From a virus (lineage: Duplodnaviria > Heunggongvirae > Uroviricota > Caudoviricetes), in IMG/VR virus record IMGVR_UViG_2728369183_000008: DNA of 8,332 nucleotides; one strand, 5' to 3'. The notes beneath the pieces are model-generated. The model was given only the letters and a program-made list of their open reading frames with translations, searched no databases and was not told where the DNA came from. Positions 2,198 through 8,332 of the stretch are shown one piece after another; the first letter of the stretch is position 1, and each line of letters opens with the position of its first letter. A program made the translations under genes and the position numbers.

Positions 2198-3392
<1,195 letters not shown>

Positions 3393-3578
3393 TCAGGTAA
3401 GGGACGAACAAAAAATCCTCGGTGAATGCCTCCCGTTAAAAAAAGTATCGCTGAACCTGAATAACGAAATACCGGCTGGATAACCCGCCAGCCATATTAA
3501 CGCCATACCAACGGATTAAAAATGCCAGCAATGGCAGGGATTCGTTCACCCTGAAATCTGTAATGAGGTTAAAACACA

Positions 3579-6013
3579 ATGAGTAAAATCTTTATTTGCG
3601 CTGCTATTCCTGACGAACAGGCCATAAAAGAAGATAGCGCTGTTGCGGTGGCCACTGCCATTGAAGCCGGTGATGAACGTCGCGCCCGCGCAAAATTTCA
3701 CTGGCAATTCCTGGAACATTATCCGGCTGCTCAGGACTGCGCTTATAAATTTCTTGTTTGCGAGGATAAACCCGGCATACCCCGCCCTGCCCTCGATTCC
3801 TGGGATGCTGAATATATGCAGGAAAACCGCTGGGATGAGGAATCCGCTTCCTTTATTCCGGTCGAACCAGAATCCGATCCGATGAACGTCAATTTTGACA
3901 AGCTGTCCCTTGAAGTACAGAACGCGGTCCTGGTTAAGTTCGGTACATGTGAAAACATCACCGTTGATATGGCGATTGACGCGCAGGAATTACTGCAGGA
4001 AGACGTTGCTACCTTTGACGGGCATATCGTTGAAGCACTGATGAAAACGCCTGAAATTAACGCTATGTATCCGGAACGCAAACTGTTCGCTATCGGATGG
4101 GTTAAACACAAATGTAATCCGGGTGCCAAATGGCCAGAAATTCAGGCTGAATTACGTAACTGGAAAAAACGGCAGGACGCAGAGCGCAAAGAGACTGGAA
4201 AATACACGTCTGTTGTTGATCTCGCCCGCGCCAGAGTCAATCAACAGCACACTGAAAACTCAGCAGGAAAAATCAACCCAGTCACTGCCGCCATTTGTCG
4301 CGAATACAAGCAGACATGGAAAACGCTGGATGAAGAACTGGCCTACGCTCTCTGGCCTGGCGATATTGATACCGGAAACATTGACGGCAGCATCCATCGC
4401 CGGGCAAAAAATGAAGTTATCGACAAAGATCGCGAAGACTGGAAGCGCATTTCCGCATCAATGCGCAAACAACCCGATGCCGTTCGCTACGACCGTCAGA
4501 CTATTTTTGGCCTTGTCCGTGAGCGTCCGATCGACATTCACAAAGATCCCGTAGCACTGAACAAATACATCACTGAATACCTGACTACCAAGGGCGTGTT
4601 TGAAGATGACGAAGGAACAAATCAGGGCACAGCTGGTACTCTCCCGTCACCAGTACCAGAAACTGATGCAGTGGAAACGGCAATGCCGGACAACGAAAAA
4701 ACCGAATGCGAAGTGGAAGACGAACCATCTGTAGAGCGTGAGGGACCGTTCTACTTCCTTTTCACCGATAAGGACGGCGAAAAATACGGTCGCGCAAACA
4801 AACTTTCTGGTCTGGAAAAAGCACTGGCCCTGGGAGCTACGGAAATCACAAAAGAGGAATACTTCGCACGTAAAAACGGCACGTACTCAGGTTCACAACA
4901 AAATACTGGTGCATCTGACACGATCGCACAACCAGAGCCGGTAAAAGTTACCGCTGACGAAGTAAACAAAATTATGCAGGCAGCCAATATCAGCCAGCCT
5001 GACGCCAATAAGTTGCTTGCTGTATCACGTGGTGAATTTGTTGCAGGGATTAGCGACCCGAATGATCCGAAATGGGTGAAGGGGATTGAAACCCGCGATT
5101 CAGTGAATCAGAACCAGCAAGAAACGGAACAGAACGGCCAGAAAGCGGAACAAAACAGCCCAAATGCGTTACAAAACGAGCCAGAAACGAAACATCCTGA
5201 ACCAGTGGCGCAACAGGAAGTGGAAAAAGTCTGCACCGCCTGCGGTCAGACCGGCGGCGGCAACTACCCTGATTGTGGCGCGGTGATGGGCGACGCAACA
5301 TACCAGGAAACATTCGATGAAGAGTATCAGGTTGAAGTTCAGGAAGATGATCCGGAGGAAATGGAAGGCGCTGAACATCCACACAAGGAGAACACTGGCG
5401 GCAATCAGCATCACGATAGCGATAATGAAACTGGCGAGACGGCAGATCACTCAATTAAGGTGAACGGTCATCAAGAAATCACATCCACCAGCAGGACGTG
5501 TGACCATCTAATGATCGACCTTGAAACCATGGGAAAAAATCCTGATGCCCCGATCATCTCAATAGGTGCAATATTTTTCGATCCGCAAACCGGAGATATG
5601 GGACCGGAATTTAGTAAGACTATCGATCTGGAAACTGCTGGCGGGGTCATTGATCGGGACACCATTAAATGGTGGCTTAAGCAATCACGCGAAGCGCAAT
5701 CTGCCATTATGACCGATGAAATCCCGTTAGATGATGCACTGTTACAATTGCGGGAATTTATCGACGAAAACTCCGGTGAATTTTTTGTTCAGGTCTGGGG
5801 AAATGGAGCCAACTTCGACAACACGATTTTGCGCCGTTCATACGAACGGCANNNNNNNNNNNNNNNNNNNNNNNNNNNNNNNNNNNNNNNNNNNNNNNNN
5901 NNNNNNNNNNNNNNNNNNNNNNNNNNNNNNNNNNNNNNNNNNNNNNTCGTTACCAGGCAAAATACGTTTCAGCTATCTGGCAAAAACTGATCCCGAGTCA
6001 GGCTGATTTTTAA
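3579..6013 (+). CDS. Prophage RecE-like exonuclease (often annotated exodeoxyribonuclease VIII) with a C-terminal DEDD-type 3'-5' exonuclease domain; interrupted by an assembly gap
   Basis: ATG at 3579 with GAGG upstream. Internal segment KLLAVSRGEFVAGISDPNDPKWVKGIETRD resembles a RecE segment I recall. C-terminal region has Exo I (MIDLETMG) and Exo II (GNGANFDNTIL) motifs. With the gap taken as 95 nt the in-frame stop is at 5990; if the gap length is a multiple of 3 the stop is at 6011..6013 (tail RYQAKYVSAIWQKLIPSQADF). The end coordinate is therefore uncertain. Confidence 0.75.
5852..5946. other. Assembly gap (95 N)
   Basis: Run of n characters; real length and content unknown. Confidence 1.
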
Positions 6014-6028
6014 TGTTCAACCCTAATT

Positions 6029-6054
6029 GCCGCTAACCGTATATAGTTAGCGGC
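6029..6054 (+). promoter_or_regulatory. Perfect 9-bp stem-loop between the exonuclease and xis genes
   Basis: GCCGCTAAC (6029..6037), 8-nt loop, GTTAGCGGC (6046..6054). No following T-tract, so not a classical intrinsic terminator; could be an RNA structure or a protein-binding palindrome. Confidence 0.3.
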
Positions 6055-6071
6055 GGTTATGAGATATAGCT

Positions 6072-6275
6072 ATGAGCAGCTTATTTTTAACCGAAGATGA
6101 ATTGCTAATATTAACGGGCTGCAAATATGCAAGCCACCAGCGAAAATGGTTAATGGAAAACGGGCTTCCGTTCTATACCAATCGTAGTGGCAAACCGATT
6201 GTCAGCCGGGATCTATTTACCTGCAATAAAACTTTACCACCACGCGAGGTAGAGCCGAATTTTGGTGCGATCTGA
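6072..6275 (+). CDS. Excisionase-like protein, DUF4224-type (67 aa)
   Basis: Small ORF immediately upstream of the integrase, with its stop overlapping the int start (ATGA at 6272..6275). N-terminal MSSLFLTEDELLILTGCKYASHQRKWLMENGLPFYTNRSGKPIVSRDLF resembles the DUF4224 family commonly paired with integrases. Not lambda-Xis-like. Confidence 0.65.
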   Translation: MSSLFLTEDELLILTGCKYASHQRKWLMENGLPFYTNRSGKPIVSRDLFTCNKTLPPREVEPNFGAI

Positions 6276-7299
6276 TGGGAAGACGAAGGAAAAATCCTGA
6301 ACACGAAAAATTACCTCCAAATGTATACCCAAATAAATATAGTTATGTATGGAAACCAACATCCAGAGAATCTGTCACACTAACCGCCATCAAGGATGGT
6401 TTAGCTGCTTTATGGAAAAAGTATGAGGAAACTGTAAATAATCGCGATCGTGCAATGACATTCGGTCGCTTGTGGGAAAAATTCCTCGCCAGCGCCTGTT
6501 ACAGTGACCTTAGTCCAAGAACACAAAAAGATTATCTGCAACATCAAAAAAAGTTGCTTGCCGTATTCGGTAAGGTACCAGCGGATTCCATAAAACCAGA
6601 ACACATCCGTCGATACATGGACAAAAGAGGGGAGCAGAGTAAAACGCAAGCCAACCATGAAAAAGCAGTATGTCCCGTGTTTACAGTTGGGGGTATGAGC
6701 GAGGGTACGTCAAGGCTAACCCATGTGCAGGTGTAAGTAAATTCAAGGCCAAAAACCGCGAACGATATGTAACCGACAAAGAATACCAGGCAGTATTAAG
6801 CGTTGCACCTCTTCCTGTTTTTATCGCAATGGAAATTGCCTATCTGTGTGCAGCGAGGGTTTCCGATGTGTTATCGCTGAAATGGGAACAGATTGGAAAC
6901 GACGGGATATTCATCCAGCAAGGGAAAACCGGAAAAAAACAGATAAAAGCATGGAGTCCACGATTACAGGCAGCGATCGAAAAAGCAAAACAGTTACCAA
7001 AATCTGCCTATGTGATCAGCAATCAATACGGCAACCGATATATGTACAAAGGCTTTAACGAAATGTGGGTAGAAGCAAGAAATCGTGCTGGAAAAATTTC
7101 AGGTATTTTAACCGACTTCACCTTTCATGATCTGAAGGCGAAAGGAATTTCAGACTATGAAGGAAGCAGCCGGGATAAGCAACTTTTCTCTGGTCACAAA
7201 ACCGAAGGGCAAGTGCTAATCTATGACAGGAAGGTTAAAGTTTCACCAACACTTGATGTCCCGTTACCTGAAAATATTCCAAGAAAATATTCCAAGTAA
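6275..7299 (+). pseudogene. Lambda-family tyrosine integrase, disrupted by a frameshift
   Basis: N-terminus MGRRRKNPEHEKLPPNVY resembles lambda Int (MGRRRSHERRDLPPNLY). C-terminal part has candidate catalytic residues R (AARVSD), K (QGKTG), H (TFHDL), H (GHKTEG), Y (LIYDRK). The reading frame changes between 6661 and 6733, most plausibly at the A5 run 6660..6664; the two track ORFs are 6275..6736 and 6670..7299. The HxxR box reads HDLK (AAG at the Arg position). Confidence 0.85.
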
Positions 7300-7306
7300 T
7301 TCCAAG
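7276..7306 (+). repeat. Three direct repeats of ATTCCAAG at the int 3' end, adjacent to the tRNA; candidate integrase arm-type sites
   Basis: ATTCCAAG at 7276..7283, 7289..7296 and 7299..7306, within about 50 bp of the tRNA 3' end, where P'-arm sites lie in lambda-type attL. Confidence 0.35.
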
Positions 7307-7351
7307 TGTGATTTTTGTCACTGACTTAATGATGTGTAAGTGATTGAATTT

Positions 7352-7441
7352 TGGCGGAGAGAGGGGGATTTGAACCCCCGGTGGAGTTGCCCCCACTCCG
7401 GTTTTCGAGACCGGTCCGTTCAGCCGCTCCGGCATCTCTCC
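7352..7441 (-). tRNA. serU: tRNA-Ser (anticodon CGA), type II with long variable arm
   Basis: Reverse complement reads GGAGAGATGCCGGAGCGG...CCGGTCTCGAAAACCGG...GGGGGTTCAAATCCCCCTCTCTCCGCCA. Anticodon loop CU-CGA-AA, T-arm GGGGG/CCCCC, 3' CCA encoded. 90 nt. Confidence 0.95.
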
Positions 7442-7534
7442 GTTCAGATGGTTGCCATGATGCCAGGAAATTTGGCATTTTAACAGTCCCTGTCCGTGCA
7501 ATTTTGTTCAAGTGACGAGTTTGCGAGCAAAACG

Positions 7535-8332
7535 ATGATTAAGTGGCCCTGGAAAGTACAAGAATCAGCACATCAAACTGCCCTTCCCTGGCAGGAAGCA
7601 CTATCGATCCCCCTTTTAACGTGTCTGACAGAACAGGAACAAAGCAAATTGGTCGCTCTTGCCGAACGTTTTTTACAGCAAAAACGGCTTGTTCCTTTAC
7701 AGGGCTTTGAGCTGAATTCATTAAGAAGCTGCCGGATAGCACTTCTATTTTGCCTGCCCGTTCTGGAGTTAGGACTGGAATGGCTGGATGGTTTTCATGA
7801 AGTCTTAATTTATCCTGCGCCATTTGTGGTCGATGATGAATGGGAAGACGATATCGGTCTGGTGCATAACCAACGTATTGTTCAGTCAGGTCAGAGCTGG
7901 CAGCAAGGGCCTATCGTTTTGAACTGGTTGGATATACAAGATTCTTTTGATGCTTCTGGTTTTAACCTGATTATTCATGAAGTCGCTCATAAGCTGGACA
8001 CCCGTAACGGCGATCGCGCCAGCGGAGTTCCCTTTATTTCGTTGCGTGAGGTTGCTGGCTGGGAACACGATCTTCATGCTGCAATGAACAACATTCAGGA
8101 AGAAATCGAATTAGTTGGTGAGAATGCGGCGAGCATTGATGCTTATGCTGCCAGTGATCCTGCTGAATGTTTTGCCGTACTTTCTGAATATTTCTTTAGC
8201 GCCCCAGAACTTTTTGCTCCTCGTTTCCCTTCATTGTGGCAACGTTTCTGTCAATTTTATCAACAAGATCCTTTGCAGAGACTGCATCACGCTAATGATA
8301 CAAACTCGTTTTCGGCGACGAATGTTCATTAA
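7535..8332 (+). CDS. mtfA: MtfA (Mlc titration factor A, zinc-dependent peptidase), 265 aa
   Basis: Translation [28 protein letters not shown]... with the HEVAH zinc-binding motif; recognised as E. coli MtfA (YeeI). Start chosen at ATG 7535, not the upstream in-frame ATG at 7496, to give the canonical N-terminus. Confidence 0.9.

Follow-up and report, generated by a model that had tools for sequence, protein, structure and literature searches.

Sp14 is a prophage of the Sakai strain placed at the serU locus (PMC8190617). Its integrase was judged intact by Asadulghani et al., who considered the Sp14 homologue of the Xis-like gene probably non-functional and who found circular Sp14 DNA by attP PCR after mitomycin C, with a weak signal (PMC2669165). 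This circularisation, weak and seen only after induction, could reflect catalysis in trans by another integrase. Across the tyrosine recombinase family, few residues are conserved as strongly as Arg II, with 99.1% arginine and 0.5% lysine at this position (Gibb et al., PMC2943603). Mutants that have lysine in place of Arg II, namely Cre R292K, vaccinia TopIB R223K and the corresponding mutants of XerCD, nevertheless retain partial activity; Cre R292K shows activity in vivo as well as in vitro, accumulating the covalent intermediate and showing a defect in ligation (PMC2943603).

The window analyzed here, a stretch of 8,332 nucleotides, ends at a prophage-chromosome junction at the E. coli serU locus, where tRNA-Ser(CGA) is followed by mtfA. 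The region 6275..7299 is the integrase gene (int) of a lambdoid Sp14-type prophage inserted at the 3' end of serU, with int adjoining the 3' end of tRNA-Ser(CGA) and mtfA lying beyond (Table 1). The yodB-side end of the prophage is located beyond the window limits. Towards the tRNA, the gene order is exonuclease, DUF4224 ORF and int. The DUF4224 ORF matched the PHROG excisionase family phrog_1266 at E = 3e-21, and its TGA stop shares one base with the ATG of int. A 67-aa excisionase-like ORF beside int is the arrangement of lambda-type heterobivalent integrases.

The O157:H7 copy of the Sp14-type element occupies the same yodB / tRNA-Ser(CGA) / mtfA site, has the same order of exonuclease, DUF4224 and int genes, and carries an int whose DNA is 93.8% identical to that of the window, including the HDLK box and a KYSK tail with putative arm-type repeats. 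The window differs in that int is split at an A5 run and that there is an IS5 element immediately upstream of the exonuclease gene. In the O157 copy the run is A6 and the ORF is unbroken; it has 340 codons, one fewer than the 341 of the repaired gene, owing to an in-frame deletion of 3 bases close to the 5' end. Lambda Int (PDB 1Z1B, 1Z1G, 5J0N) is more distant, with an identity of about 22-25%, but apparently has the same three-part architecture, and it has equivalent R, K, H, H and Y residues, whereas its R311 is a lysine in the window. Both loci have a Xis-like gene adjacent to int and tandem arm-type sites, putative in the window, between int and the core; in the window these sites overlap the 3' end of int, and the element uses a tRNA gene as its target instead of attB. 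Lambda attB lies between gal and bio.

Table 1. Features of the window, ordered by position, with the strand where it was assigned.
Feature	Position	Strand	Remarks
rem, Qin-type	346-597	minus	intact
hokD, Qin-type, type I toxin, 51 aa	814-969	minus	intact
IS5-family element (ISKpn26)	about 2198-3392		transposase 2344-3324, minus strand; right end near 3392
Large exonuclease gene	3579..6013		run of N inside
DUF4224 / excisionase-like gene, 67 aa	6072..6275	+	ORF; annotated as DUF4224 protein in relatives
int 5' fragment, frame 1	6275..6736	+	from translation; stop at 6734-6736
A5 homopolymer, site of one-base deletion	6660..6664	+	from alignment; relatives have A6
int 3' fragment, frame 3 (SSMSRVYSW...KYSK*), catalytic domain	6664..7299	+	first ATG of the frame at 6670; ends 7297-7299
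Arg I codon (AGG)	6856..6858	+	equivalent to lambda R212
Catalytic Lys codon	6925..6927	+	equivalent to lambda K235
Box II H-D-L-K (CAT GAT CTG AAG)	7126..7137	+	Lys AAG 7135-7137 at the Arg II position, lambda R311
His III codon	7195..7197	+	equivalent to lambda H333
Catalytic Tyr codon	7222..7224	+	equivalent to lambda Y342
Three direct ATTCCAAG octamers, putative P' arm-type Int-binding sites of attL	7276..7307	+	7276-7283, 7289-7296, 7299-7306
tRNA-Ser(CGA), serU	7352..7441	minus	ARAGORN; attachment core in the 3' part, which faces int
mtfA, host gene flanking the prophage	7535..8332	+	annotation of relatives; coordinates transferred from alignments

We consider it very probable that int in this Sp14-type prophage was pseudogenised by the loss of one A and that the lysine in its box II is ancestral at the Arg II position and maintained by selection. 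An earlier note on this DNA had described the two halves of a lambda-Int-like protein as lying in different frames, and three-frame translation bears this out, with frame 1 continued by frame 3. The genuine Int sequence of the 5' fragment comprises residues 1-130 (MGRRR...ANHEK, 6275-6664), which correspond to the putative arm-binding and the core-binding regions; after them come 23 residues read out of frame (6665-6733) and the stop, resulting in a product of 153 aa. Since the last stop in frame 3 is the TGA at 6658-6660 and the homology switches frame between HEK and SS, the shift lies within 6660..6664. The earlier note had placed it in the same A5 run, as the loss of one A, and the close relatives agree with this: E. 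coli 3385, MS 196-1, SW070919 and O157:H7 86-24 all have A6 and an unbroken ORF, and strains 3385 and O157:H7 86-24, when aligned to the window, show a single gap, A5 versus A6. With A6, the ORF has 341 uninterrupted codons. A megablast search with 6275..7299 as query found int in 1,148 of 5,426 complete E. coli genomes, and the full-length matches, down to 94.1% identity, span 1,026 bases as opposed to the 1,025 bases of the query.

In the repaired protein, Pfam identifies the catalytic domain (Phage_integrase, PF00589) at residues 183-317, with 44.7 bits against a cut-off of 27.1, and Phage_int_M and SAM-like domains at residues 62-154. The putative arm-binding region is covered by the alignment to lambda Int, which starts at residue 1 (MGRRR...LPPN.Y); the Pfam arm-binding model is absent from the hits at E<=0.01. 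In a functional tyrosine recombinase the DNA-binding and catalytic domains lie in a single frame, whereas here a one-base deletion separates them. The change from A6 to A5 would end the reading frame after residue 130 and the 23 junk residues, and translation from the internal ATG at 6670 would give a protein devoid of the putative arm-binding region and of most of the core-binding region. As the whole catalytic domain is missing from the N-terminal product, this copy of int should be inactive and is unlikely to yield an excision-competent recombinase. In its intact form, the protein would be a heterobivalent integrase recombining a core in the 3' part of serU, and its partners would be the arm sites and the translationally coupled Xis-like gene upstream. 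The earlier note had suggested an inactive integrase on account of both the frameshift and the box II lysine; the frameshift supports this view by cutting the catalytic domain from the N-terminal product, but the lysine does not.

For the A5 allele, we used the exact 153-aa product as lookup key, since its 23 out-of-frame residues identify the A5 allele. A gene-position index lists it in 27 blocks, on at least 24 contigs from NCBI genomes, ENA human-gut metagenomes and Logan SRA assemblies, among them a 5.07-Mb chromosome (GCA_964038655.1) and two other NCBI assemblies, and the exact sequence also occurs on 12 contigs of a protein collection. Typing of the run covered 16 loci, and A5 was present in all eight of the fetched loci with the truncated product. 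Over the part that was compared (window 5947-8332), the int region of these eight loci is identical to the window, and all SNPs, of which there are 0, 2 or 13, fall within mtfA. The upstream context varies, with IS5 present or absent; one of the eight loci is without it. This is the same defective prophage allele in different host backgrounds, assembled independently many times. A 76-base query centred on the run matches 747 RefSeq complete E. coli genomes, none of which has A5, and an exact-pattern scan of a one-genome-per-species collection did not find the allele either. The occurrence of one prophage end with several host mtfA alleles could reflect recombination of mtfA or spread of the segment.

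The alternative that the gene is truly intact, with A6, and that A5 is a homopolymer error of sequencing or assembly in this record, had been left standing by the earlier note. It would be in keeping with a source assembly that is draft-like, having a gap of 95 N against 135 bp in the closest complete genome, with the fact that over 2.4 kb MS 196-1, the nearest complete genome, differs only by this indel and one SNP, and with the lack of A5 in the 747 matching RefSeq genomes. However, A5 with the exact 153-aa product recurs on contigs from unrelated projects whose hosts differ in their mtfA alleles, and contig names of the k119_ and k127_ type among the carriers suggest a short-read assembler. 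This recurrence in unrelated assemblies argues against random error, and we judge a sequencing error to be very unlikely. A deletion that is real could also be bypassed at a low level, by slippage of tRNA-Lys or during transcription, in which case some full-length Int would be made and the element would be weakly mobile. The shift does lie within a run of A, where re-pairing of tRNA-Lys in the -1 direction (AAA to AAA) is possible, and the allele persists in several host backgrounds. On the other hand, inspection of the sequence shows GAA AAA GCA in this frame, which is no canonical X XXY YYZ heptamer, and five A's are too short for efficient transcriptional slippage. Further, A6 is overwhelmingly common, so that A5 looks derived and defective, and the prophage shows further decay, including the IS5 insertion. 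We regard such a bypass as exceedingly unlikely and retain the loss of one A as a probably inactivating deletion.

The active-site residues were mapped by a phmmer search against the PDB, in which the repaired protein and lambda Int align over residues 1 to 313 (E = 6e-13), and by a MAFFT alignment including lambda Int, which confirmed all six catalytic columns. R63/K86/H153/K156/H176/Y185 of the 3' ORF are R195/K218/H285/K288/H308/Y317 of the repaired protein and correspond to R212/K235/H308/R311/H333/Y342 of lambda Int. Arg I, the catalytic Lys, His II, His III and Tyr are thus canonical, and Arg II is replaced by a lysine, with H-D-L-K falling on lambda H308-E-L-R311 in the phmmer alignment. 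The reading of box II as H-D-L-K with an AAG codon, given in the earlier note, is correct, and so is its residue mapping to lambda Int.

What does not hold is the proposal that this lysine is a lesion, since lysine is the norm of the subfamily. All 120 best homologues have the motif HD[L/I]K. Their identities lie between 99% and 55%, and they belong to many genera of Enterobacterales, among them Escherichia, Salmonella, Klebsiella, Citrobacter, Dickeya, Pectobacterium, Sodalis, Hamiltonella and Gilliamella. As a more distant set, we took the full-length hits of an exhaustive HMMER search that represent clusters at 50% identity; in these 115 representatives, the position is occupied by lysine in 84 and by arginine in 29. 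The other columns of the active site are conserved in the same set (Arg I in 114, catalytic Lys in 115, His II in 110, His III in 108 and Tyr in 113). The conservation of the lysine together with the rest of the active site points to purifying selection on a working active site and not to decay. The lysine at Arg II is no reason to exclude this protein from the tyrosine recombinases.

Occurrences of lysine at this position in other elements also bear on function. The box FHDLKAKGISD is identical in the integrases of the isolated temperate lambdoid phage mEp390 and of Salmonella phage 118970_sal3, which belong to the same Lys-type subfamily (48% and 59% identity, respectively) and have a tRNA-derived core; the attP in the genome of 118970_sal3 contains no more of tRNA-Ser than its 3' part. 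The O157:H7 copy at serU likewise reads HDLK. On these indirect grounds we infer that Lys-type integrases are probably catalytically competent. In the literature on Lys-type lambda-family integrases, we found only the general Arg II statistic and the data on the Cre mutant. The lysine would presumably contact the scissile phosphate, as arginine does elsewhere. The mutants of Cre, TopIB and XerCD share lysine at Arg II with the window but were engineered from Arg-type enzymes, whereas the lysine of the window is the natural, conserved state of a clade, which presumably has a compensating active-site context. Because of the ligation defect of Cre R292K, a Lys enzyme may be slower. As a candidate for an active phage with nearly the same integrase, we also considered Escherichia phage vB_EcoM-606R7 (ON470580.1), whose Int is 99.7% identical, and rejected it as proof: the record is a prophage prediction with host flanks and contains mtfA, tRNA-Asn and the yersiniabactin genes ybtS/X/Q.

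In favour of the view that the lysine is an inactivating point mutation from AGG to AAG, AAG is one transition away from AGG, and Arg II is 99.1% arginine in the family as a whole (PMC2943603). Against it stand the invariance of the lysine in the 120 close homologues and its presence in 84 of the 115 distant representatives, where the rest of the active site is conserved, as well as its occurrence in the isolated phage mEp390, in the attP-carrying genome of 118970_sal3 and in the O157 prophage copy at serU. Moreover, circular forms of Sakai Sp14 have been detected and Cre R292K keeps activity. Homologues routinely carry lysine, the activity of Lys-type enzymes is indicated indirectly, and the reading as a point mutation is almost certainly wrong. 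We therefore return to the lysine as the ancestral residue of this integrase and advise against calling a lesion at Arg II in its subfamily.

The region between int and the tRNA core contains three direct copies of ATTCCAAG, spaced by 13 and 10 nt and overlapping the last int codons and the stop. Octamer triplets likewise adjoin the int stop in mEp390 (ATGGCGAA) and 118970_sal3 (TTTTCTCA), with spacings of 13 and 10-11 nt. The octamers of these two phages differ from that of the window, and their loci, in which int is intact, are in the attP configuration, whereas the window represents attL. In both phages two extra copies of the octamer are found beyond the tRNA-like core, as against 0.2-0.3 matches expected by chance. 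Towards int, their attP regions have three or four copies, past the core they have two, and the remainder of the roughly 4-kb locus is free of the octamer. In 118970_sal3 the last repeat starts about 54 nt before the tRNA 3' segment, compared with 53 nt in the window. As this layout is that of lambda's P'1-P'3 plus P1 and P2, the ATTCCAAG triplet probably represents arm-type Int-binding sites between int and the tRNA core. With three candidate sites of this kind, the locus again resembles those of lambda-type heterobivalent integrases.

These repeats bear on the annotation of the gene, as PGAP flags relatives with A6 as "frameshifted" pseudogenes and extends their CDS to 25 nt beyond the TAA. 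The 3' end of int reads AAAATATTCCAAG AAAATATTCCAAG TAATTCCAAG, and a rare RefSeq protein of 345 aa (WP_332188564.1) has one 13-mer fewer and ends in ...ENIPSNSKCDFCH. Copy-number variation of the repeats gives tail variants of Int with 341, 345, 346, 349 and 360 aa. Most frequent by far is the 341-aa form, of which one exact sequence occurs on 205 contigs, and the KYSK tail is common to homologues of 60-68% identity from other genera. The evidence points to the PGAP flag on A6 alleles being an artefact of copy-number variation of the arm repeats over the int stop; a "frameshifted" flag on intact 341-aa serU alleles is thus no evidence of dead integrases. We also considered the two copies of AAAATATTCCAAG (7271-7296) as a 13-bp tandem duplication and hence a third lesion of the gene, prompted by the PGAP flag on A6 relatives. 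We rejected this reading because the KYSK tail is conserved, the 341-aa form is the commonest, the PGAP flag is explained by the rare 345-aa reference and the layout is that of arm sites.

Members of the Lys-type clade are found in Enterobacterales and in phages of other Proteobacteria. It is a tentative idea, to which we give a rather low probability, that they form a large, old and apparently functional clade with a possibly different chemistry, and that slippage of the arm repeats could tune recombination. If so, Lys-type enzymes might, by analogy to Cre R292K, be biased towards cleavage relative to ligation or depend on a compensating residue, and repeat slippage in the serU lineage would alter the number of arm sites and the C-terminal tail of Int together.

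Taken as a whole, the window contains an ordinary pseudogenised integrase in a degraded, IS5-carrying prophage. Directly upstream of the exonuclease gene lies the ISKpn26 element, and farther out follow rem, hokD and a DUF968 gene. At the position of the insertion sequence, strain 3385 has dicB, ydfC, cI/cro-like genes and a replication gene, so it seems that the prophage of the window has lost its immunity and replication modules beside the IS. In MS 196-1 a further 175 bp adjoining the IS (window 3394-3568) are absent. It is plausible that the prophage is fixed at serU, as the earlier note had proposed, owing to the frameshift and the IS5-associated loss of prophage functions, and not to the lysine. 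A pseudogenised int is in keeping with a cryptic, IS-disrupted prophage whose own integrase is probably unable to excise it. The A5 allele is already present in public assemblies, and the finding is of little importance beyond annotation; mildly interesting aspects are the biochemistry of a natural Lys-type clade and the putative overlap of arm sites with the tail of int.

The run of 95 N at 5852..5946 breaks the frame of the exonuclease gene. The closest complete genome has 135 bp at this place, which suggests that the run marks a scaffold gap of a draft assembly. The true stop of the exonuclease gene is the TAA at 6011-6013, and not the listed ORF end at 5990.
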